From a virus (lineage: Duplodnaviria > Caudoviricetes), in IMG/VR virus record IMGVR_UViG_3300028422_001978, positions 1 through 43,029 of that record: a DNA stretch of 43,029 nt; one strand, written 5' to 3'. The notes under the pieces were generated by a model, which worked only from the letters and a program-made list of their open reading frames with translations, did not search any database and was not told the origin of the DNA. Both the position numbers and the translations under genes were made by a program. This document shows positions 21,346 to 43,029 of the stretch, one piece after another (positions within the stretch are counted from its first letter, which is position 1; each line of letters begins with the position of its first letter).

Positions 21346-22596
21346 TCAAGCACATCTTCGGGTATTGTCAAACATCACAAGCTTATCTATGCGGTCAAAG
21401 ATACATGGTCGCTCATCGATCACCTTATTCACATCAAGGACATCAAACATAGACAGCTGGCCATTGCTTCTCGCAACCCTCAGTTTATTAAGCTCCGCCG
21501 CCATTCCTTTTTTCATAAACATTTCCCAATGCTTGGGGTGAGTCCGCCGAAGCATGGCCATGTGATTATTTTTATAAAGAAGGTCGGTTCCGCATCCCAT
21601 GCATCCATTGCGCTTTATTTTATGGAATATGCCTTCATCGTCCGTCCACCCCATGTCATAAAGCGGTGAATACGGAACGTGGTAGCGATTGATGTATTCC
21701 CAAATATCATCATCCGTCCAAATAGATAGAGGATTGCAATGATAAAATGAATCGCTGCCCAAGTGCGGCCTTGATGATTCAAACAGATATCCACGTGAGA
21801 TGAAGTTCGTCTGGCGTGAACGTGACTCCGCCGCCATCAACCCTTTAAAAATCACATCAACGTGCAGCTCTGCCTGAAGCTTCTCACTGGGTTCTTTTTT
21901 GAGCGTGTCGCAGCACGCCTGTGATATCTTTACATCTCGCAGGATGTCGTAATAGGCAAGCAATTTGGGGTCAATGCTTTCACTTTTAGAAAACTTAAGA
22001 AAGCAGTCTATATTGATTCGATGGGCTTTCAATTTTGAAAATGCTTTACCCAAGAGCGGCCAGCCGTACTGATCAATGCACCACCAATAGTTTTTTCTGT
22101 GCCCTTCTGGCCATATGAGATGTTCACGCTGAAACTTTTCTATCAGATGTGCCGGGCACGCGGTTTCGAGAGAAGCTGTGCTCTTAAGTTTTCCGTCCTC
22201 TTTAAGCAACTCGTCTATACGCTCGTTGTCGACATAATACTGCAACACTTCCTGTTGCGCGGAATATTTTAACCCAGAACATCCAGTCTTAAGCGGCTGT
22301 GCTTCATGGAACCTATCTCCGCCCCATTCTTGTCCGATCTTACGTGCAAAGCTAAGGCTTTCAGGATATTCAACGCCTGTATTTCCAAAGATTATATGAA
22401 TCTTATCCGCCGCGTCAGGGAAAAACCGCCGAATTAAGTCCCACAGTACAGTGCTATCCTTCCCGCCGCTAAAAGCGAGAGACATGTTATGTTTTGATAC
22501 TGCAATTCCGTTTGAAATAGCATCTACGGCCTTTTTTATTTTATAATCAAGGTCTTTACCTTGTTCTATGGCAAGCTCTTTGTAGCTGATATACAT
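21346..22596 (-). CDS. PAPS reductase-family (PP-loop, Fe-S) protein
   Basis: FSGGKDS PP-loop, NTGVEYPE, CC..LKKEP, WTDDDIWEY and RNGCMGC motifs. Confidence 0.9.
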   Translation of the reverse strand: MYISYKELAIEQGKDLDYKIKKAVDAISNGIAVSKHNMSLAFSGGKDSTVLWDLIRRFFPDAADKIHIIFGNTGVEYPESLSFARKIGQEWGGDRFHEAQPLKTGCSGLKYSAQQEVLQYYVDNERIDELLKEDGKLKSTASLETACPAHLIEKFQREHLIWPEGHRKNYWWCIDQYGWPLLGKAFSKLKAHRINIDCFLKFSKSESIDPKLLAYYDILRDVKISQACCDTLKKEPSEKLQAELHVDVIFKGLMAAESRSRQTNFISRGYLFESSRPHLGSDSFYHCNPLSIWTDDDIWEYINRYHVPYSPLYDMGWTDDEGIFHKIKRNGCMGCGTDLLYKNNHMAMLRRTHPKHWEMFMKKGMAAELNKLRVARSNGQLSMFDVLDVNKVIDERPCIFDRIDKLVMFDNTRRCA

Positions 22597-22616
22597 ATTA
22601 ATCCCTCACAATTTTG

Positions 22617-23162
22617 TTATTCCCGATCAATCGACTGTATCCCGAACAGCAGCGCCCCCATCTTGTCACAGGCAGCTTCAAAGTCTTTGTACACCGTCCT
22701 GTTATCGATGCCCTCTTTATCGGCTATATCGCCCACCTGCAGCGGTTCATCCAACAGGCACATGGCTTCAAGTACGCGATACCGGCGCTGCTCCTCTGGC
22801 TTTTTGGATGCATAGCATATCTGTTCGTACGTATGGAGCATAGAATCAATATGAGCCAGCATGATGGCCGAGCGTGCCTTTGATCTCTTGATGGCCACGA
22901 CATCGATATCGTCATTCTCCATGAGATCTCTGAAGAACTCATAGTCTTCTGTCACGACTTCGGAAAGAGAAGCAATGGCATCACCGGCATGTATTTTGAT
23001 CTCACGGTAGTTTCTCATAAGGCGCTTTGTATCGCGCAAGCGGCGGTTGATGCGCTGCTGCTTGCCTTTTTGCTGCTCACGGGTATAGAACTCAAGCGCG
23101 ATCTTTGATGCGACCTCTGCGGCCACACGAGCGACGCCATCTTGCGGTTTATCTTTAGACAT
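22617..23162 (-). CDS. Late transcriptional activator (ArpU/RinA-like, C-terminal HTH)
   Basis: LMRNYR...HID...IADKEGIDNRTVYK...LLFG; last gene of the early region. Confidence 0.75.
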   Translation of the reverse strand: MSKDKPQDGVARVAAEVASKIALEFYTREQQKGKQQRINRRLRDTKRLMRNYREIKIHAGDAIASLSEVVTEDYEFFRDLMENDDIDVVAIKRSKARSAIMLAHIDSMLHTYEQICYASKKPEEQRRYRVLEAMCLLDEPLQVGDIADKEGIDNRTVYKDFEAACDKMGALLFGIQSIDRE

Positions 23163-23175
23163 ATATGTTTCCCCC

Positions 23176-23397
23176 TTATCTCATATGGTTTCGTTTGATA
23201 CAGGCTGCTACCCTGTCCTTCTTGACCTCACCGATTGCCAACCGGCTTGCTTTCATCGCATGAAGATGATTGCGATATGCTTCTTGTTTTTCTGCGTATT
23301 CCTTGTGCTTTGAACACGAGCCGTCAAATTTGCATGTGACCGATCTGTCGGCGCATTCAGGGACACATGGATTTATTGGTTTATTCAAAGTCCTCAC
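23176..23397 (-). CDS. Small Cys-rich hypothetical protein
   Basis: PCVPECADR..TC....C. Confidence 0.65.
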   Translation of the reverse strand: MRTLNKPINPCVPECADRSVTCKFDGSCSKHKEYAEKQEAYRNHLHAMKASRLAIGEVKKDRVAACIKRNHMR

Positions 23398-23477
23398 ATT
23401 CCCTCATTTTAAATTGTTGCTCCGGCATCCTTGCTATCTATTTGGTTGTGTCGTACACTCTATCTGAGGTGACCTTT

Positions 23478-23684
23478 ATGCGTATAGATTCAACAGACAA
23501 ATGGGACGATGTTGCCCGGCGACTTTCAGAACAGGGCTATAGCTTGTGGCAGACGCAATTCGATACCGACGATCCGCATGGGTTCATTGCGCGTTTCATG
23601 ACTTCTGACGATACAAAACCGCGTGTTGAGCATGTCACCTATGACGCGAAAGTTCGTGATGCTATGCTGCGGTATAAGTTATAG
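23478..23684 (+). CDS. Counter-oriented hypothetical protein, 68 aa
   Basis: GAGGTG RBS before ATG 23478; fills a gap in the - strand operon. Confidence 0.65.
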   Translation: MRIDSTDKWDDVARRLSEQGYSLWQTQFDTDDPHGFIARFMTSDDTKPRVEHVTYDAKVRDAMLRYKL

Positions 23685-24368
23685 CTTCCATCCCTGCGGA
23701 AACTCTTTCCGTAAATCTGATCCAAAGCAAAACAACCTGTCTTCTAAACTGTCTTTCATAAAAAAGGGTATTTTATATGCCGTTGCCTGCTCCGACATTT
23801 CTTCTATCCAATCAGTGCGTGTCACGTGCTGCGGCTTCCCGTTCTTGGTCAAGTCGCCTACTATCCACCACATACAGCGCAAGCTACAAAGCACATCTGG
23901 CGATATCCGTTCCATCAGAGGTTCAAAGCTGATGAAGTCAGCACCGCCAGCATCGATCACAGCCTGAGCTTGTGCGTTGTTGGTGACGGTGGCGCCGATT
24001 AAAAAGTTTGCAGGGCATGGAATTGAATCGGAATACAATCTTTTTATACGATTGATAGCCACATAACTTTTCGTCAACGCAAGGTAAATATTATGGTTGT
24101 TCTCGACCATTGCCGCCACTGTATCGGTGATCCAAAAAGGCTCCCAATGCGCTATATCACTCATGCTGTCAATAAAAATGATCATCGGTTCCTTGGTGCG
24201 AAACTCTTTCAGCCTATTCGGGAAAAACTGCGGCTTTGAGAAGTCGGGCACCCAATGAAAGCGGTTGTTCATTGATCTCGCATAGCAGTATTCACATCCG
24301 TTCGGACACCCGCAGACAGGATTCGCAGTCTTGTCACACCACCCAATGTTATTGCCTTTGCGTTTCAT
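23679..24368 (-). CDS. DUF5131 (Gp37/Gp68) radical-SAM-like protein
   Basis: IGWCD..NP..GCPNGCEYCYA, SMSD, LTK, SFEP and PFFMK motifs. Confidence 0.85.
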   Translation of the reverse strand: MKRKGNNIGWCDKTANPVCGCPNGCEYCYARSMNNRFHWVPDFSKPQFFPNRLKEFRTKEPMIIFIDSMSDIAHWEPFWITDTVAAMVENNHNIYLALTKSYVAINRIKRLYSDSIPCPANFLIGATVTNNAQAQAVIDAGGADFISFEPLMERISPDVLCSLRCMWWIVGDLTKNGKPQHVTRTDWIEEMSEQATAYKIPFFMKDSLEDRLFCFGSDLRKEFPQGWKL

Positions 24369-24553
24369 ACGCTCACATCCTCTCCAGCAAACCATCGACG
24401 ACATGCTTTTTCCGGGTACACCCATTCCCTGCCTATCTTTTTACGCGGCATGCCTTGAGCCGCCCATTTGTATATCTGATCTTCTCTTTCAACATAAAAA
24501 GCTTTCATGAACTCTGCTTTAGACAGATATATTTCATCATCCATTTGTTTCAC
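24365..24553 (-). CDS. Small winged-HTH (Xis/AlpA-like) protein
   Basis: IYKWAAQGMPRKKIGREWVY. Confidence 0.7.
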   Translation of the reverse strand: MKQMDDEIYLSKAEFMKAFYVEREDQIYKWAAQGMPRKKIGREWVYPEKACRRWFAGEDVSV

Positions 24554-24560
24554 CTCTTAT

Positions 24561-25079
24561 TTATTTCGGCCACTCACCGTATTGCACATAGTAAATGTTT
24601 GCATCTCGCGCTCGTTTTAGGCTCTCAAGGCTCTCTCCGCTGTTCCCGCCGTCTGGATGCGCTTCTTTTGCCTTTTGCCGAAAAAAAGCATTGACCTGAT
24701 CGACGCTTTCAGGCTCAGATTCGAACCCAAGGATACGAAACGGCCCAGGCCGCTCTTTTGGTGCTTCGATAAATTTCATTCCAGCGAGAAGCGTTTCCCA
24801 TGTGAATATCCCAAGCTTACGAACTCTCGCCAACGCTTCAAGCGATAAAACCAATTGAGCGAACACGTCACTCACATACGATGATTTCAGCCCCGCCGCT
24901 TTTGCCCTCTCAAGGCTATGTTCGAACTTATAAAACCGTCCGTTAAGATCGAAGCTTATCCATACGTTTCCAAGGCGATCCCAATTGTACATAAGATTTT
25001 GCGCTTCCATTTTGTCGATCAATGATTTCAATTTTTTCTCGTACATTTCGGCGCTCGCGTATTGTTTTTTATTTGCCAT
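24561..25079 (-). CDS. Protein with C-terminal J domain
   Basis: FRILG...FRQKAKEAHPDGG (HPD motif). Confidence 0.8.
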   Translation of the reverse strand: MANKKQYASAEMYEKKLKSLIDKMEAQNLMYNWDRLGNVWISFDLNGRFYKFEHSLERAKAAGLKSSYVSDVFAQLVLSLEALARVRKLGIFTWETLLAGMKFIEAPKERPGPFRILGFESEPESVDQVNAFFRQKAKEAHPDGGNSGESLESLKRARDANIYYVQYGEWPK

Positions 25080-25261
25080 CACCGGCCTCCTCTCCAAACT
25101 CTTCAATAAAAAGTGCATCGATGTCTTTCTGAGCTTTCTCAGACAATCCAGTGTCATCAACCCCATCCGCATTTACAGCGCAGCGGGCCATATCCACCGC
25201 TCCCACAAAACGCACCGCATTTCGGACATTCACCGTCAATAAATATGAATGACTGCTTCAT
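25069..25261 (-). pseudogene. Small zinc-ribbon gene interrupted by an apparent 1-nt insertion
   Basis: MKQSFIFIDGECPKCGAFC...RCKCGWG stops at 25157; removing one G from the G4 run (25161-25164) extends it through VDDTGLSEKAQKDIDALFIEEFGEEAGDGK to overlap the next start. Confidence 0.5.
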
Positions 25262-25704
25262 AGTTGTAGCCCCTCCCAGTTCCATAATCTTTGACCACCT
25301 CGCGCGGGTATAGGCTCGTTCAGCATCTTAACTTTGGCTATCTCCCATGCATATCTGCCTGGTGTCCAATCTCCGAAGAGAAGCTCGTTATAGCTGATCA
25401 CCTTGTTTTTGATACGAAAAACGTTGTATTCATCCCTAGCCATCTTGTGGCAATCAACAAGCTCTGCCGTGGCTACGATGCACCCATAAGGCAATTCGCC
25501 AAAGCTGTAAATATCCTTGAGGTTGAGCGCGTTTGCAAAGGGATAAAGCTCCCTGTCAAAATACGTGTCGGTATCAAACGGCTTTTTGGCCGCATGGATC
25601 GCTATCGGTCCTCTGTACGATGTCGCCCAGCTGCGGGTTTCATACTGCTTCATGCCGCACGCCCACAGGGACGCCCACGGCTGCCAGAGAGTTATTGCTT
25701 TCAT
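25258..25704 (-). CDS. ASCH domain protein
   Basis: MKAITLWQPWASL, K.YETRSW, YRGPIAIHA and PARGGQRLWNW motifs. Confidence 0.92.
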   Translation of the reverse strand: MKAITLWQPWASLWACGMKQYETRSWATSYRGPIAIHAAKKPFDTDTYFDRELYPFANALNLKDIYSFGELPYGCIVATAELVDCHKMARDEYNVFRIKNKVISYNELLFGDWTPGRYAWEIAKVKMLNEPIPARGGQRLWNWEGLQL

Positions 25705-25937
25705 ACGGGCTGCTCCTTTTTCTTTATGAGTTTCCTCACAAGTTCTTTCGGATGGATCTCTTTTGCCCCATATCTTCGGGCTTTATCGCGCATCCTCTGA
25801 GTCGTCAAGGCATAATGTGAATACCAGCCTTTTTCTTGATACCATTCACGTTTCAGGCCGATTTCTTGGGCGAATGCGTGAAGCTCATCCGGTTCGCAAT
25901 CAGTGATCATGTGTCCTATGTTATCAAAGAAAATCAT
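25701..25937 (-). CDS. DUF4031-like protein
   Basis: HMITD...ELHAFA..IGLKREWYQ...HY. Confidence 0.8.
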   Translation of the reverse strand: MIFFDNIGHMITDCEPDELHAFAQEIGLKREWYQEKGWYSHYALTTQRMRDKARRYGAKEIHPKELVRKLIKKKEQPV

Positions 25938-26167
25938 TCTGGTTCTATATCAGGCTCTGGCATGTTTGCGCAATCCGTTGCCATAAAGCCTATAAACTCT
26001 GTCAACTCTTCGAACGCATCTTGAAATTCGTCCGCGATGTCTTTGTATTCCGGCGACGGAACGACTTTGCCGTCACAGCCTGATTTCAGACATTTGTCGC
26101 TTATCCCTGATTCAGATTTGGCAGCTGAGAAGCTATACTTTCCACAGCTCGTGCAAATGTATCTCAT
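25934..26167 (-). CDS. Small zinc-ribbon protein
   Basis: CTSCG...C....C. Confidence 0.65.
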   Translation of the reverse strand: MRYICTSCGKYSFSAAKSESGISDKCLKSGCDGKVVPSPEYKDIADEFQDAFEELTEFIGFMATDCANMPEPDIEPE

Positions 26168-26679
26168 CCCTTTTTTGCTCCTTTCGCATACCGCCTGATT
26201 GTTTCATAACAGCCTGTCTTATTATTGAGCTGGACCGCAACAGGACTTCCACAATCAAGACACGGAATATCGAACATGCTGTCTGATATATTGGTTCCAT
26301 ATCTAAATCGACGACCGCATTCACATGCTACAAAAAGAGGAATCAAAGCAGATGGTAAGTCGCTTGTTTTGCGGCATGAAGTGCAGAAATATGAACTTAT
26401 ATTGGTTCTTGCGTTGAAGCTCCTTATATCTCCACAATTCGGACATTGGATGTGCATAAAACCTTTATGGGATGTCTGTTCGTGTCCTTGTATGAATGTG
26501 GCTGTCTCTTCTTTGACTGATGGCGTTGGAACCTCAACCGGTTCATGCGTCACGTTGTTTTTTTGGTTGATCTCCGCTTTTATAAGGTCTTGCACTATCA
26601 TGCGGAACTGGATTGTACACTCGGGCTCTGGCAGCTCTGCCGAAAAAGTGTTTTGTCCGGCTAATACTGTAAGTTTCAT
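26164..26679 (-). CDS. Double zinc-ribbon protein
   Basis: CPNC, CTSC, CEC and CLDC. Confidence 0.75.
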   Translation of the reverse strand: MKLTVLAGQNTFSAELPEPECTIQFRMIVQDLIKAEINQKNNVTHEPVEVPTPSVKEETATFIQGHEQTSHKGFMHIQCPNCGDIRSFNARTNISSYFCTSCRKTSDLPSALIPLFVACECGRRFRYGTNISDSMFDIPCLDCGSPVAVQLNNKTGCYETIRRYAKGAKKG

Positions 26680-27992
26680 TGACTGTCCTCCTTGCTATAT
26701 TTCGTGTCCAATACCGTTTGTTTGCATCGATGCTGCCACTTTCTGATTCGCTTGCATCTATCACACATATCTATTTTCTTCCGGCTGATCACACTGACAC
26801 CGCAGCGGCGACAGTATTGTGGCTTAATGCGCTGGAAGCTCTTGCAGACGTCGCAGTTTTCCTCGTTAGCTGTGCAGCCTTCGATGTCATCCCAGAGCAT
26901 ACACATATCTTTCTGAAAGAACTCATCCCAGCCCAGCGCATTCCGCCGCATTTTCAGTAACATCACCAGCCGTGATAGGTCTTTTTCAGTTTGCGTCCGT
27001 GTACGGGAGAGGAAGCGCCCCTGCTTCACTGTCGGCACCGGCGCGCCCGTTCCCCAGGGACCGGAGCCAATCATCGCGCGTATCTTGTCCGCGTTCTCCG
27101 TCAGGTAGGTATAGTACACCTTTCCCCGGACGGCTTTTTCGGACCGCCCGAGCACCATGCCGATGACTGTATAGCTGTCGCCAGCTCTAATGCCGTCCGC
27201 GACAGCTTGGAAATCCGCGTCAGTCCACTCGTTTCGGTTGTCAGCTTTGACCGGGCGCTCTTTCAGCCCCAGATCGGTGCAGCGCCGTTGGATGGCGCCG
27301 GCCGATCGGCGGAGCATCGCGGACAGCTCTGCATACCCGTACTTGTACTGTTTGAGCAGATGCTTAAGACGGTTGTCCTCGGCTGGCGTCCACGGGTCTT
27401 TGCGCTGAAGCGCGAACGCCTCAAAATCCTTGCGGCGCTGCGCCGGTACCCAGTCAGGCTCAATCCCTAGCACAAACGGCTCCATCTTTGAAAAGTCCAG
27501 AAACGCGCGGTTCTTCTCAGCCCATTTCCAGAACTCCTCGATGTACACCACCCTGAACGAACAGGCATTGACGCGCTTCCGGTGGACAGGCAAGCCGCGG
27601 TTTTTTACCCAGCTCTCTATCTTGTACGAGTAGCTTTTTGCGCTCCCCGTCACGGCGGCAAGCAGCTGGTTGAGGGTGACATACTCTCCATTTTCGAGGA
27701 ACGCGCCCAGTCCCAAAGTATCTTTTCGCTGTATCACGCCTTGCCGTGACCGGCCGAGGCTCTGTGCTATCGTGCCGATCGACTTCTTTCCCCAGTTTTC
27801 CTCAAGATAGTCGTCCTCGGCCTTCGTCCAGTTACGCCCCATCTTGACGCCGAGCTTATCTAGCCTGGCAAATACCGCGCACCGGCTCCGCCCCATCTGC
27901 CGCGCGATTTCAGCGGCCGAAAGTTTCTTCCCGACCAACTCGCACAGCAGAGTTTCTTCTTCGGGTGTCCAGCGCCTGTATTCCGTCTTCAT
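26676..27992 (-). CDS. DNA-binding protein with repeated Myb/HTH-like units and a C-terminal Cys cluster
   Basis: Four WT units (WTPEEE, WTKAED, WTPAED, WTDAD), each followed by a GRS/RRS helix. Confidence 0.75.
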   Translation of the reverse strand: MKTEYRRWTPEEETLLCELVGKKLSAAEIARQMGRSRCAVFARLDKLGVKMGRNWTKAEDDYLEENWGKKSIGTIAQSLGRSRQGVIQRKDTLGLGAFLENGEYVTLNQLLAAVTGSAKSYSYKIESWVKNRGLPVHRKRVNACSFRVVYIEEFWKWAEKNRAFLDFSKMEPFVLGIEPDWVPAQRRKDFEAFALQRKDPWTPAEDNRLKHLLKQYKYGYAELSAMLRRSAGAIQRRCTDLGLKERPVKADNRNEWTDADFQAVADGIRAGDSYTVIGMVLGRSEKAVRGKVYYTYLTENADKIRAMIGSGPWGTGAPVPTVKQGRFLSRTRTQTEKDLSRLVMLLKMRRNALGWDEFFQKDMCMLWDDIEGCTANEENCDVCKSFQRIKPQYCRRCGVSVISRKKIDMCDRCKRIRKWQHRCKQTVLDTKYSKEDSQ

Positions 27993-29341
27993 TGTCCGTC
28001 GTCCGGATCTACGGCTTCAGGCTCCGGCTGCTCTGCCTTTTTCTCCGGCTGGTCGAACAACTCATGCGTTCCGTCCTGAAGCGCTTTTTCCTCGTCAGAC
28101 ATTTCATAGCCGAGCGCAGTTAACGTGTCATAGAGCACATCAAGGCTATTGTTTTTTTCATGCTCTATCATGTGCTGCCAGCTTTGTGCGTGGAAATAAT
28201 CGTTGCTCGGCTTATCGTCAAAGCAAGCATAGGCAACAAGAAGCAAGGTTTTTTCCGGCTGTTCATAATACCTTCCAAAAATCAACTTGCGCTTGGCGTC
28301 CTGCACTTCGCTGTTATAATCCTCGCCTGCTGGCTTCTCGATATCGAGCAACTTTAATATATTGTTGAGGTCCGCGTGGCTATATTGAGTCAGCCTCCGG
28401 AAGGCAAGTGTGTAAATATGGGCAGAATGCTTCTTTGCCGCGCCAAACTCCTTTACAAAAGCGTACCTCAGTTCAAATGCTCGCTTCGACAGTTTTTTAA
28501 GCTCTGCCTCGCGCTTGCTGAATATTTTCTCAGCTTCTGTCTTTTCTTTTTTCTCCGGAACATCGGCGGTTTTGTAGAGAGAGATAGCGTAGTCGTTTAA
28601 TGTGTAGAAATACTCCGTCTTGCCCGCGTCCTTCGGCTTTTTAAAATCTTCGCGCTTAAAGGCATGGAAATAGCGAACATTAGATGTGCCCTTAGGTTGA
28701 TCTTTGACTTTTTTTGCCCAATCACCAAGCCACTCCAACATCTCTTTTTTTCTCACGCTCTTCGCTTCTTCCTCGATGCACTGTTCCATTTGCCATTTAA
28801 AATTGTGCGTGCCGATCGCTTCAAGGGCTTTGTGTTTTAACTTGATGTCCTTTATCTGCTCCAGCGCAATATAATCTTGTATTGTGCCACCACGAGAAGA
28901 GGCTGCTTCAAGCTTATCCCGTTTTAGGTCCATGAGCCGTATTCTGTGGCGGATGGTAGTTTCACTGAATCCCGTTTGCTTTGATATTCCCGTAATGGTA
29001 TCGCCCAGGTTGAGCATCATCTGAAAGCCATCGGCCTGCTCCATCACAGTTAGGTCTGCGCGCTGCATGTTTTCAACCAGCATTGTTGCAACCTGCTCGT
29101 GTTTGTCCATGCCAGATATAACGCATGGCAGCTCTTCAACCCCCGCCATCACTGAGGCCGCGTGGCGACGATGCCCGATCACGATACGGTACGTTTCCTC
29201 AAATTCATCGGGTACGACCGTCAGATTTTGCATGACACCCTGTCTCTTTATGCTGTCTGCCAGCTCTGTCAAGTCGCCGAGGTCTTTTCTCGGGTTGTCC
29301 GGATGCGGAAAAAGCAGTCCGGTTTTTATCATCGTTATCAT
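27989..29341 (-). CDS. ParB/Spo0J-domain protein
   Basis: PHPDNPRK, GVMQNLTV, IGHRR and ENMQRADL motifs, plus HTH. Confidence 0.9.
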   Translation of the reverse strand: MITMIKTGLLFPHPDNPRKDLGDLTELADSIKRQGVMQNLTVVPDEFEETYRIVIGHRRHAASVMAGVEELPCVISGMDKHEQVATMLVENMQRADLTVMEQADGFQMMLNLGDTITGISKQTGFSETTIRHRIRLMDLKRDKLEAASSRGGTIQDYIALEQIKDIKLKHKALEAIGTHNFKWQMEQCIEEEAKSVRKKEMLEWLGDWAKKVKDQPKGTSNVRYFHAFKREDFKKPKDAGKTEYFYTLNDYAISLYKTADVPEKKEKTEAEKIFSKREAELKKLSKRAFELRYAFVKEFGAAKKHSAHIYTLAFRRLTQYSHADLNNILKLLDIEKPAGEDYNSEVQDAKRKLIFGRYYEQPEKTLLLVAYACFDDKPSNDYFHAQSWQHMIEHEKNNSLDVLYDTLTALGYEMSDEEKALQDGTHELFDQPEKKAEQPEPEAVDPDDGQ

Positions 29342-29371
29342 TTTTGCTCCTTTCAAATTGCGGGCTGCTGC

Positions 29372-30217
29372 TCAGAAAAACGCGAGCTGCCCTTTTTTTG
29401 TAACTCTATATTCCGTTTCCGGCTCTGCCAGCATCTCGGTGATCTCCGGTGCTTTGGCCGCAGCGCTGAATATCATGTCCATCTGCGACCATACCCGGCG
29501 CCAGTGCCATATCTCCGTGAAGTAGAACGGGGTGAACCATACATTGCTGTCATTCTGACGGGGTATCAACCCGCGCCCGTCGTAGCTGATGGACGGACTG
29601 GTGATCGTATTGTCGATAACCACGTAGCCAGGGCAGCCCATAAGCGAGAGTTGAATGTAGCACATGCAGCCTACGATCATGTCGATATCCTGAGCTACGA
29701 ATAGCACGGAGTTGTGGTAGTTGACGTTCTGCCTTCTGCATTCGTTGGCGAAGGCTACAAGCAGCGCGCCAGCTCCGCAGCACGGATCGCTGGCGGATAT
29801 CCAGCCCTTTTCATCGATGTGGGCCTGTAGGTCGGTGCTGTTGATCTGTGCCATCATCCGGCATACGCTGTACGGTGTGAAGAATTGACCCTTGTAGTCG
29901 TTACTTAGCTCCAGCGCCATGAACATCTCGCCGAGGAAATCCTGATCTAGGTTCTCTTCCATGCCCATCACCGTTTCGGCAAACATGTTGCCGAATTCCA
30001 CGTATTCCTCGTCGCTGTATTTCTTGCGCATGCCGTGGTATATCTGGGTTCGGTGTTCCGCGTTTGCATGATCAACGACGTTGGATATCTCGATCGCCGC
30101 CATCGTCACGAAGTCACTCCACACGTTCCAGCGGGAATGCCGGTAGCACAGCCGGTCAAAGCTCTTTGCGATATTCTTTTGATGGCCACCTCTGACCAGC
30201 TGTGCGCTGCTACTCAT
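29372..30217 (-). CDS. N6-adenine DNA methyltransferase-like protein
   Basis: GQFFTPY, motif I DPCCGAG, AQDID; no NPP[YF], but TPFY is present. Confidence 0.8.
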   Translation of the reverse strand: MSSSAQLVRGGHQKNIAKSFDRLCYRHSRWNVWSDFVTMAAIEISNVVDHANAEHRTQIYHGMRKKYSDEEYVEFGNMFAETVMGMEENLDQDFLGEMFMALELSNDYKGQFFTPYSVCRMMAQINSTDLQAHIDEKGWISASDPCCGAGALLVAFANECRRQNVNYHNSVLFVAQDIDMIVGCMCYIQLSLMGCPGYVVIDNTITSPSISYDGRGLIPRQNDSNVWFTPFYFTEIWHWRRVWSQMDMIFSAAAKAPEITEMLAEPETEYRVTKKGQLAFF

Positions 30218-37770: not shown

Positions 37771-38004
37771 CTATTCGATAACTTCATGGCAACGGAATCC
37801 ATGCCATGTGTGCTCCGGATCCATTTCACGCCACCGTTTCTCGTCGTAGAAAAACGAGCAGTTTATAACGTTTGGGTTTCGATCCGGGAATCTGGCTCTA
37901 AATTTCTCGTGTGCTTCACTCCAATCGGCCGCGTGAACCTCAACCCAGCCGTTCTGATATGGGAACCTCTCATCGCTGCCGAATGTATAGAAAAACTTTG
38001 GCAT
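37771..38004 (-). CDS. Hypothetical protein
   Basis: AAAGGAGG RBS; MPKFFYTFGSDERFPY. Confidence 0.8.
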   Translation of the reverse strand: MPKFFYTFGSDERFPYQNGWVEVHAADWSEAHEKFRARFPDRNPNVINCSFFYDEKRWREMDPEHTWHGFRCHEVIE

Positions 38005-38106
38005 CGCATCCTCCTTTCTTCTTTGTGTCCAGCACGGGCGCAGCTGTCTTTTCTCATGCTTGCCTTTGCGCCCATACCGGTCTGTCCCAATACCCGCCAT
38101 TGGCGG

Positions 38107-38201
38107 TGGTGGCGAACGCGAGAGTTTCCCCTCACGTAAGCGCTGGCTTGTCCATCCTTTTCTCGCTGGAGGTTGGCGGGCTATTACCTTTGCGCTTCGC
38201 C
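38107..38201 (-). ncRNA. tRNA-like element 3 (95 nt)
   Basis: GGCGAA/TTCGCC stem plus A-CCA; adjacent 8-bp GAAA hairpin; multibranch interior. Confidence 0.5.
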
Positions 38202-38280
38202 ATGACTTGGGCGGTTTACACGGCCCTTTGACCGCCCGTGTTTATCCTGCGCGATTGATGACCGAGCACAGGGCTAACGC

Positions 38281-38364
38281 TGGTGGGGAGGTGAGCCTTC
38301 CACTCACGCGGCGTTGGTGTGTCGCAACCGGCTGTCAGGCCGAACGCTGGTTTATCCACTCCCC
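38281..38364 (-). ncRNA. tRNA-like element 2 (84 nt)
   Basis: GGGGAG/CTCCCC stem plus A-CCA; 5-bp/7-nt T-arm-like hairpin GTGAG-TGGAAGG-CTCAC. Confidence 0.55.
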
Positions 38365-38478
38365 ATGTTGAGCCGATTCTCACGGCTCTGCGGCTTTACG
38401 TACTTACTCCGCTAAACGCCCGTCTTTCCGAGTGTCGGCCATCTTTCAGGCTCCGCTTAGAAATGCATCCCTATCGGG

Positions 38479-38571
38479 TGGTGGAGAGAGAAGGACTCGA
38501 ACCTTCACGCGTTTGTTCAATTCGCACACGATGTACCGTCGTGCTGCATCTACCTGTTTCGCCATCTCTCC
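38479..38571 (-). tRNA. Atypical class II tRNA, anticodon GTA (Tyr-like)
   Basis: GGAGAGA/TCTCTCC acceptor, A73, encoded CCA, D-loop GG, GAAGG-TTCGAGT-CCTTC T-arm, long variable arm; anticodon loop CG-GTA-CA. Confidence 0.75.
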
Positions 38572-38603
38572 ACGTCGGCGACCCACTGGCCGCCGTTTCA
38601 AAA

Positions 38604-38795
38604 TCACGCCATTATGTCTGCGATGCTGTGTCTCTTCCTTGGATCAGTGGCATGGCGCATAGCAGTGTATGCCTTTTGCCCGTATTTCTTTTGTTGCATT
38701 CCTGTCCATATGTCGCGCATCCCTTTGTTGCCATACTTTGCGCGAAGCTGATTTCTTCTCGTTGATCTGGTGATGATATGTATAGGTGTTTTCAT
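38604..38795 (-). CDS. Small basic hypothetical protein
   Basis: GGAGGT RBS. Confidence 0.65.
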   Translation of the reverse strand: MKTPIHIITRSTRRNQLRAKYGNKGMRDIWTGMQQKKYGQKAYTAMRHATDPRKRHSIADIMA

Positions 38796-38852: not shown

Positions 38853-38985
38853 ACCGGCTTGTGTAGCGTCAAGCCGGTGATATAATGTGATAAGACTGTA
38901 AAGATCCTTTCTCCCTTTCGGGTGTTATTTGAAATATAATTTGCGGAGCGCGGTGCGTGGCTGCCCACCGGGCACGCTTTTATAT
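38853..38985 (+). ncRNA. Candidate antisense sRNA unit (promoter, inverted repeat, terminal hairpin)
   Basis: TG-a-TATAAT at 38878-38886, TTGTGT 16 bp upstream, ACCGGCTTG/CAAGCCGGT inverted repeat; 3' GC-rich hairpin followed by TTTTAT. Confidence 0.45.
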
Positions 38986-40286: not shown

Positions 40287-40315
40287 AGTGTAACTCGTAA
40301 TTACGTGCCTGTCAA
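40287..40315 (-). promoter_or_regulatory. Early lytic promoter with operator-like palindrome
   Basis: TTGACA-17-TACACT; perfect palindrome CGTAATTACG (40296-40305) in the spacer. Confidence 0.75.
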
Positions 40316-41833: not shown

Positions 41834-41856
41834 TATCACTAAAATAGGAGTATGTG

Positions 41857-43029
41857 ATGGCTAAGTATACGAAAAGATCTGATGGCCGATATCGTGCTGA
41901 TGTCACTGTCGGTATGAGCGCTGATGGAAAACGCATCCGCAAAACGCTGTACGGCCTAACGATAAAGGAGCTGGACGCAAAGATTGCCGATATAAAATCC
42001 ATGCAAAATAAAGGCGTTACTATATCGGACAACAAAATCACCCTGGGGCAGTGGGCTCAGACTTGGCTTGAGGCTTATAAGCAAGGCGTTGCATACAATA
42101 CCCGCGAGTTATACCGGCACGTGATCGAAAAACATATCAACACCGCAGATGTCGCCTGTTTGCCCTTGACTAAAATTAAAACAGTTGACCTTCAAAGCCT
42201 CGTAAATAAAAAGCAGGACGAAGGACTGACCAGAACGATTGACATGCTCGTTCTTACGCTGCGCCAGATATTTGACCAGGCTGTCGAAAATGACTTGATT
42301 TATAAATCACCGGCAAAGTCGCTTAAAAAACCGCAGATAAAAACAGCACCGAAGCGTGCTCTTTACGATATCGAAAAGCAAGCGATAGAGAAGGCTGCGC
42401 TATCAGACAACAAACGCGCATTCGTTTATCTTGGCATGTATGCTGGATTGCGCCGTGGCGAAATTCTGGCGTTGACTAAAGGTGACTTTGACATAAAAGA
42501 TAAAACGGTCACTGTAAGCAAAACAATTATTTTCAAGGGAAATACAGGTGAGCTCCAGCACTTCCCAAAATCAGAGGCTGGGTTTAGGACTGTGCCCATG
42601 CCGTCAATCTTGCTTGATTTTATGATCGAGTATTTAAAGACCGTTGACCGCGTCTATCTCTTTACAACAGCAAAGGGAGAATTATTCAGCAAGACAGCGA
42701 TGCACCGGCTCTGGCGATCGATTCTTTGCAAGCTCAACAAGGCCGCTGCACCGAAAGACAGCAAGATAAAACCTATATCAGGATTGACACCGCACATTCT
42801 GCGGCACGAATATGCCACCAGCCTCTACTATGCGGGGGTAGATATAAAGACCGCTCAAAAGCTGCTTGGGCACAGCGATATCAAGATGACACTGGCTGTA
42901 TACACTCACCTTGAGCAAGACAACAACGACGTTACTGAGAAGCTGGATAAATTATATTGCGGTAAAAATGCGGTCAATGCCCCAAACGACGATGATGGGG
43001 CAAAAGAAAAAACTCCCGAATGCTCGTGA
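41857..43029 (+). CDS. int: Tyrosine integrase
   Basis: GLRRGEILAL, PKS, HILRH, LGH and VYTH catalytic motifs; N-terminal arm-binding domain. Confidence 0.97.
   Translation: MAKYTKRSDGRYRADVTVGMSADGKRIRKTLYGLTIKELDAKIADIKSMQNKGVTISDNKITLGQWAQTWLEAYKQGVAYNTRELYRHVIEKHINTADVACLPLTKIKTVDLQSLVNKKQDEGLTRTIDMLVLTLRQIFDQAVENDLIYKSPAKSLKKPQIKTAPKRALYDIEKQAIEKAALSDNKRAFVYLGMYAGLRRGEILALTKGDFDIKDKTVTVSKTIIFKGNTGELQHFPKSEAGFRTVPMPSILLDFMIEYLKTVDRVYLFTTAKGELFSKTAMHRLWRSILCKLNKAAAPKDSKIKPISGLTPHILRHEYATSLYYAGVDIKTAQKLLGHSDIKMTLAVYTHLEQDNNDVTEKLDKLYCGKNAVNAPNDDDGAKEKTPECS
42958..42977 (+). repeat. Possible integrase arm-type direct repeat
   Basis: TGCGGTAAA and TGCGGTCAA with 11-bp period at the 3' end of int. 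Confidence 0.4.

Follow-up and report, generated by a model that had tools for sequence, protein, structure and literature searches.

Three CCA-ended units lie in tandem on the minus strand at positions 38107 to 38571 of the window, the whole 43,029-nt stretch of Caudoviricetes DNA that was analyzed (IMG/VR record IMGVR_UViG_3300028422_001978). These units are real: the coordinates, the lengths of 93, 84, and 95 nt, the GG starts after CGT or CAT, the terminal stems, the ACCA ends, and the stacked hairpins of the original prediction are all present in the sequence. A leader hairpin upstream of each unit is an addition to these features, and the repeated module consists of a GC hairpin, a 4- to 7-nt leader ending in U, a stem-closed unit, and ACCA, with the interiors free. 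The RNA cassette is probably maintained, and we give even chances to a reading in which its units are processed by host RNase P, stabilize the early transcript, and carry variable RNA inserts on a tRNA scaffold.

Architecture and setting of the cassette

All elements of the cassette are read on the minus strand. An 8-bp leader hairpin with a 4-nt loop (38576 to 38595) ends 4 nt before unit 1 (38479 to 38571), a 93-nt cloverleaf recognized by ARAGORN, Rfam, and alignment to host tRNA-Ser(GGA). Spacer 1 (38365 to 38478, 114 nt) contains several small hairpins; its 3' end is like the leader of a unit in the related locus L048, and its middle hairpin is like one that precedes a unit in locus L140. 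The second leader hairpin (38370 to 38388, 6 bp, 7-nt loop) ends 5 nt before unit 2, and its region matches the leader and start of the L048 unit at 82% over 38 nt (E = 0.003). Unit 2 (38281 to 38364, 84 nt), delineated by folding, has a 6-bp acceptor, ends in ACCA, and holds in its interior a 3-bp mini-hairpin, a hairpin with a 6-nt loop, and a 16-nt unpaired linker; its T-like arm has 5 to 6 bp and the loop UGGAAGG, which we take to fit the general T-loop motif. Spacer 2 (38202 to 38280, 79 nt) has two hairpins, and the third leader hairpin (38209 to 38237, 7 bp, 15-nt loop), for which an alternative pairing with upstream bases is likewise predicted, ends 7 nt before unit 3. Folding predicts unit 3 (38107 to 38201, 95 nt, ending in ACCA) as a three-way junction made of one long irregular hairpin, in place of the multibranch interior first proposed for it, and an 8- to 9-bp GAAA-capped arm in the T-arm position, leaving it without a T loop. 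A structured trailer (38005 to 38106), with a small GC hairpin right after the CCA and then a long hairpin, continues up to the ribosome-binding site of the next gene.

All three units fold as separate domains in an 811-nt context, and all three have an RCCA end, a U at position -1, and a stacked hairpin. The acceptor pair probabilities are 0.87 to 1.0 in units 1 and 2 (0.87 to 0.96 in unit 2); in unit 3, pairs one to four reach 0.88, the fifth 0.48, and the sixth 0.02. We count the acceptor of unit 3 as 5 to 6 bp because its sixth pair competes with the stacked hairpin, and of the 6-bp acceptors that had been assigned to units 2 and 3 only that of unit 2 stands unchanged. The folding energies of the three units alone are modest (z = -1.15, -1.24, and -2.61).

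Two pattern scans were run to different stringency. The figures of the strict one (purine-T leader, GG start, closing stem of at least 6 bp, stacked hairpin, and ACCA) overstate significance, since its criteria were drawn from the units after these had been seen: it found exactly three matches in the window, units 1 to 3, while dinucleotide shuffles (n = 200) averaged 0.005 matches and 199 of them had none; the whole genome (5.94 Mb, both strands) had 10 matches, comprising three host tRNAs, units 1 to 3, two in a second prophage, and two AT-rich ones that look like chance. Five of the genome matches fall in two prophage early regions. The looser scan (G start, closing stem of at least 6 bp, stacked hairpin of at least 5 bp, and NCCA) likewise found exactly units 1 to 3 on both strands of the window, and its 62 non-tRNA matches genome-wide correspond to 0.9 per window-sized stretch.

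On the evidence of gene content, the window covers most of a temperate siphovirus-like prophage. The integrase gene (41854 to 43029, plus strand) is followed by an ImmA-like protease and a repressor, then on the minus strand by a Cro-like gene, early genes, and a Sak4-like recombinase, with further minus-strand blocks of replication, terminase, head, and tail genes. A host tRNA cluster begins immediately past the right end of the window, and the prophage appears to be inserted in tRNA-Lys(TTT) (G000:C4:43056-43131 and C129:4047-4109), a 63-nt piece of which is duplicated on contig C129 at what is likely the other prophage end. That contig starts with small ORFs resembling lysis genes and may hold the missing end of the prophage. 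The records of related loci are mostly Clostridia.

The cassette occupies a gene-free gap of ~600 nt with a G+C content of 0.59 to 0.64, compared to 0.47 across the window. Directly upstream lies a 63-aa orphan ORF (38604 to 38795, minus strand), for which the search returned only itself and Pfam gave no match; directly downstream lies a 77-aa gene (phrog_28990; 37771 to 38004, minus strand), which has no link with the cassette in other phages. A promoter scan placed a sigma-70-like site with 10 of 12 consensus matches at 40287 to 40315 (minus strand), ~1.7 kb upstream of the cassette and pointing into the early operon; it likely drives the cassette, and no terminator-like site was found by scan on the minus strand between the two.

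Three other features were recorded. A 25-nt noncoding motif (38879 to 38903, minus strand) after an 86-aa gene, possibly an operator or regulatory site, has exact copies on contig C37 of the host genome and in genome G007. An accessory block at 21346 to 30217 (minus strand), which has genes like those of PAPS reductase and ParB and gives a weak match to methyltransferases, is possibly a DNA-modification module. Near a close homolog of the window's excisionase-like gene, L047:550-615 gives a subthreshold Rfam match to the type II hammerhead ribozyme (28.3 bits, E = 0.12).

Origin of the units and their relatives in other prophages

Alignment points clearly to descent of unit 1 from host tRNA-Ser(GGA), with 72% identity and a score of 105 compared to 48 ± 5 for interior shuffles. 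The acceptor and anticodon stems are identical to those of the host gene, and the T stem carries one compensatory change from G-C to A-U; the loops differ while stem pairing is kept. The changes comprise a Leu-like D arm, the anticodon loop CG-GUA-CA, an enlarged variable loop, and a discriminator shift from G73 to A73. Unit 1 has the 7/5 acceptor and T stems, TTCGA loop, and CCA of a cloverleaf, and it is unlikely to decode, since it carries G33 and C37, whereas every one of the 45 host tRNAs has U33 and a purine at 37. As had been expected, ARAGORN calls unit 1 alone, and unit 1 alone scores as tRNA with Rfam (35.1 bits; gathering score, 29); the Rfam gathering search of the whole window gave 0 matches.

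Neither ARAGORN nor Rfam matches units 2 and 3 to tRNA, and these two units have no cloverleaf, no D- or T-loop consensus, no anticodon arm, and no likeness to host tRNAs above shuffles. A tRNA-Trp origin of unit 2, plausible by eye, was rejected at a score of 44.2 against a shuffle mean of 45.5. The statement that two of the three units are not tRNAs is correct for units 2 and 3, but unit 1 is noncanonical as well (G33/C37 and A73). Comparison of the sequences suggests that the units probably arose from captured host tRNAs, capture being seen for unit 1 and not detectable for units 2 and 3.

With those of the window, 20 units of this class occur in 11 loci in the early regions of related prophages: three in a second prophage of the same genome (L049), two each in L048 and L269, four in L140, one in L138, and a family of five described below. 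They were found partly by scan or model and partly by eye, with duplicate records counted once; 18 were tabulated, and two with less regular acceptors were left out of the table but taken into the leader-hairpin count. In the tabulated units, which are related rather than independent and whose selection rested in part on pairing, U at -1, and ACCA, the first six acceptor positions are paired in 18/18, A stands at the discriminator in 17/18 (compared to 20/45 host tRNAs), U at -1 in 14/18, exact CCA in 13/18, and G3.U70 in 5/18. Lengths range from 57 to 165 nt, and the acceptor sequences vary among units. The surviving anticodon arms are usually irregular, with an 8-nt loop, a short stem, or a long insert.

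In two related units, the body has no normal D arm and carries an arm like that of initiator tRNA: L049:4654-4730, called tRNA-Met by ARAGORN, and L140:4610-4680 both have an initiator-tRNA anticodon arm (three G-C pairs, CAU) and a 6-bp G3.U70 acceptor, and L138:2880-2956 has a similar arm with an 8-nt loop. Four oversized units of 118 to 165 nt (L140:4904-5021, L140:5152-5295, L269:1359-1523, and L048:7336-7462) combine Ser-type acceptors with large structured inserts replacing the anticodon arm, and L140 has ~450 nt more structured noncoding sequence beyond its oversized units. A GC-rich hairpin between a tRNA-like unit and the next start codon is common to L049:4180-4237, L140:4450-4510, and L138:2985-3035.

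The five-member family consists of 57- to 71-nt units without an anticodon arm, situated just upstream of the phrog_6499 anchor gene (L141:1170-1228, L157:701-767, L158:1458-1527, L159:662-732, and L160:4456-4512). Each is built from a 6-bp acceptor, a mismatch, one hairpin, a true T arm, and ACCA or ACCG, with more conserved hairpins after it. In this small sample of five related sequences, all 55 of 55 acceptor and T-stem cells pair and 5 of 11 columns change on both sides, which 0 of 5,000 permutations reached; the pairs were counted from end-anchored positions because MAFFT misaligned the 5' ends.

The distribution of the class is patchy. Of the 23 genome loci that match the anchor gene over a long stretch, 6 have units and 17 have none, and none were found in 80 viral loci reached via the neighboring 126-aa gene, in 8 viral loci and 350 genomes of the order reached via the downstream 77-aa gene, or in 18 family loci picked by the ImmA-like gene. 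Direct homologs of units 2 and 3 were found neither by BLAST of 101 relatives, where only host tRNA-Ser matched, to unit 1, nor in 40 family genomes or GenBank phages and plasmids. End-to-end patterns gave 20 and 3 matches in viral contigs, all rejected as lacking a stacked arm or similarity, and leader and scaffold patterns gave 0 matches in viral contigs and 1 in 401 genomes of the class. A search of 40 family genomes with model R1 was swamped by host tRNAs, and one of 151 genomes with model R2 found no new member and gave three weak matches. Five short motifs were absent from three of the nine supplementary files of PMC10690425, which surveyed 10,006 candidate viral RNAs and whose supplements may include relatives. 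Units of this class are probably undercounted in prophages, because tRNA finders miss or mislabel them, as in the call of unit 1 as tRNA-Tyr.

A CRISPR array beside a cas7-like gene in a genome of the same genus (L050:2270-4360, G018:C47) has spacers matching the window's gene downstream of unit 3 (33/38 nt) and the L140 noncoding cassette (31/34 nt), indicating that relatives of these phages are active and targeted.

The leader hairpin played no part in choosing the units, and for this reason it is the strongest independent indication that a maintained module includes units 2 and 3. A GC-rich hairpin of at least 5 bp ending 2 to 12 nt before G+1 precedes 15 of the 20 units, including all three in the window; the corresponding figures are 4 of 45 for host tRNAs, 10.5% for positions taken at random nearby, and 6.8% for shuffles. 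In an imperfect control of four lytic phage regions, which differ in host and several of which are AT rich, it precedes 4 of 44 ordinary tRNAs, or 3 of 21 when those packed behind another tRNA are set aside. The leaders have a G+C content of 0.53 in the units and 0.42 in host tRNAs. One of the control regions, a Stenotrophomonas phage tRNA array, contains a 155-nt unannotated stretch (L308:4348-4502) with a 6-bp closing stem, a stacked hairpin, and GCCA in a tRNA-like slot.

Candidate functions

In the reading that we favor, the early promoter would transcribe the cassette and host RNase P would likely cut at the first G of each unit, releasing stable, nondecoding mimics of the tRNA top half. 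Trimming at the 3' side or CCA repair would yield the CCA ends, and each upstream piece, whether mRNA or spacer, would be left with a protective 3' hairpin; such a 3'-terminal hairpin would slow 3' exonucleases. The selected job would be to punctuate and stabilize the early transcript and to carry variable inserts. The original idea of a cassette of tRNA mimics cut from the early transcript finds indirect backing in an RNase P RNA gene and a PF01743 gene (CCA-adding-enzyme family) in the host and in the U at -1, RCCA, and stacked hairpin of the units. According to PMC10465520, the features read by RNase P are the RCCA end, the T stem-loop, and residue -1, and model substrates whose T loop is replaced by GAAA are cut 2- to 1,000-fold more slowly. 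The five units without an exact CCA are in keeping with a function that depends on processing and not on a tail already in place. Several observations weigh against this reading: the acceptors are short, at 5 to 6 bp (PMC4201824); U(-1) may pair with A73; unit 3 has no T loop; most related loci have no such units (17/23, 80/80, 8/8, and 18/18); no homolog of unit 2 or 3 was found; and the units were chosen partly on pairing, U at -1, and ACCA and have leaders richer in G+C than those of host tRNAs.

With the same processing, selection could have acted on a different property: the released RNAs may mainly be decoys for toxins that read the acceptor stem and CCA end, such as the toxSAS CapRel and FaRel2, nucleotidyltransferase, or GNAT toxins, an alternative to which we assign a minor share of the probability. 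The half of the tRNA that is kept is the half that such toxins read; in PMC11559606, toxSAS bind the CCA in a conserved groove, read the variable acceptor stem, and modify minihelices. Acceptor sequences vary among the units, the early-operon position and patchy presence fit accessory counter-defense genes, and AbiEii-family genes occur in 3 of 5 hosts. A phage-borne tRNA-Tyr may serve as decoy or supplement against Septu (PMC13096335), and unit 1 has GUA and an altered variable loop. Set against this are the 5 of 18 units without an exact CCA, a RelA_SpoT search that gave one long enzyme per host in five hosts and no small toxSAS, a full AAA_13 match in only 1 of 5 hosts, the absence from all window units of the C2-G71 pair needed by FaRel2, and the leader hairpin, which decoys leave unexplained. 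Toxins reading the acceptor and CCA seem a better fit than the anticodon nucleases suggested originally, which find no support in the loops of the units: an anticodon-like one is missing from unit 3, that of unit 2 has 6 nt, and that of unit 1 has G33/C37. The suggestion of T-box ligands is not supported either, as a T-box needs the tRNA anticodon. A broader conjecture, again with a chance of perhaps one in five, is that temperate clostridial phages combine the hairpin, leader, and top half with an exchangeable insert and in this way make large amounts of anticodon-less RNAs that titrate defense toxins reading the CCA and the acceptor. If true, this would be an RNA-only counter-defense whose specificity is changed by swapping the acceptor stem, and it would explain T4 RNA C as well.

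Somewhat less probable than decoys is that the units are decaying host-derived tRNA genes without present function. The descent of unit 1 from tRNA-Ser(GGA), related loci that run from near-tRNA to barely tRNA-like, imperfect CCA ends in 5 of 18 units, and the orphan status of units 2 and 3 all fit decay. However, the changes spare the top-half pairs, some of them are compensatory, and the shift from G73 to A73 in Ser-type acceptors took place in more than one lineage. Moreover, units 2 and 3 resemble no host tRNA above shuffles yet retain closing stems, ACCA, U at -1, and the leader hairpin. Recurrence in related prophages with top halves intact and anticodon arms broken or missing argues against simple decay, one of the outcomes by which the original prediction would have fallen.

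A further and rather doubtful alternative is that the RNAs are charged with amino acids and, as ligands of EF-Tu, synthetases, or Rel, affect translation or its surveillance. Unit 1 might be charged with tyrosine or leucine: it has A73, U35, and G1-C72, bacterial tyrosine determinants, and A73 is the main leucine determinant, while the alanine determinant G3.U70 occurs in 5 of 18 related units (determinants as given in PMC9976931). Irregular tRNAs that are charged but untranslated are described in PMC5389517. Against charging, G3.U70 is missing from all three window units, neither D/T-loop consensus nor a recognizable identity set is seen in units 2 and 3, and acceptors are not conserved between units.

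Least credible, and already largely refuted, is that units 2 and 3 result from chance folding, are fragments of an attachment-site tRNA, or belong to an overlapping gene or antisense RNA. The looser-scan background and the raised G+C content of the region leave some room for chance, but the strict scan and its shuffles speak against it. The prophage's attachment duplicate is the tRNA-Lys(TTT) piece outside the window, and the units sit 4.5 kb within the prophage; Pfam gave no match for five overlapping ORFs, and no complement above chance level was found in the genome (best E = 0.15).

Relation to known systems

The description of the array as an undescribed system was too strong, since T4 RNA C has the same top-half layout and irregular-tRNA polycistrons are already published (PMC5389517). 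In the literature searched, mostly without subscription papers, no description of hairpin-led, anticodon-less tRNA mimics in clostridial prophage early regions was found.

Several RNA classes share single features with the cassette. Attachment-site tRNA fragments, the comparison class of 10.1101/2022.07.05.498093, are near-identical copies of a host tRNA at an element end, unlike the units. Bacterial Y RNA YrlA has a tRNA-like module, is cut by RNase P and receives CCA in one species, occurs in some phages, and is encoded next to Ro60/Rsr, all according to PMC4201824; no TROVE gene (PF05731) was found in any of five hosts, including G000 (92.7% complete), and the window units have no Rfam match to Y RNA. 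The tRNA-like domain of tmRNA likewise joins acceptor, T arm, and CCA without an anticodon, and three related units match the ends of the tmRNA model weakly and five have G3.U70, but the window units have no tag reading frame, pseudoknots, G3.U70, or tmRNA match (RF00023). In MALAT1/mascRNA, RNase P is guided by a tRNA-like element, and the 3' end formed by the cut is shielded by a structure immediately upstream of it; this is an analogy only, being eukaryotic, with a triple helix instead of a hairpin and of unrelated origin. Allo-tRNAs and irregular-tRNA polycistrons are likewise tandem, with Ser-type bodies, non-Ser anticodons, and some members unused in translation (PMC5389517 and PMC7609411). 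In allo-tRNAs, the acceptor/T branches are 8/4 or 9/3, the V arm is long, and position 73 is mostly G or U (PMC5389517), whereas the window units have 7/5, 6/5-6, and 5-6/8-9 branches and A73, and units 2 and 3 have no cloverleaf.

The closest counterparts are T4 RNA C and RNA D (rnaC and rnaD; species 1 and 2), likewise non-tRNA RNAs beside phage tRNA genes, which the T4 record lists as small stable RNAs. In RNA C, a true T arm stacks on a closing stem that is imperfect and a large insert replaces the D and anticodon arms; an encoded ACCA end follows rnaD. The window units share the RNA C layout, with nonconsensus loops in the T position of units 2 and 3, and have no sequence likeness to rnaC or rnaD (shuffle fractions, 0.11 to 0.80), so that they are alike in shape and not homologous. 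T4 is lytic and its RNAs are late and stand in a canonical tRNA array, whereas the cassette lies in the early region of a temperate clostridial-type phage, with no canonical tRNA and with a leader hairpin for each unit. The function of RNA C is given as unknown in PMC9697503. Phage RNAs with tRNA-like ends and no decoding role have been known since T4 RNA C and RNA D, with a function still lacking. The cassette provides three such RNAs, with no normal tRNA among them, in a small temperate phage; in its relatives the frame is kept while insert, acceptor, and tail differ, forming a natural series in which a processing signal, a toxin decoy, and a charged ligand predict different results.
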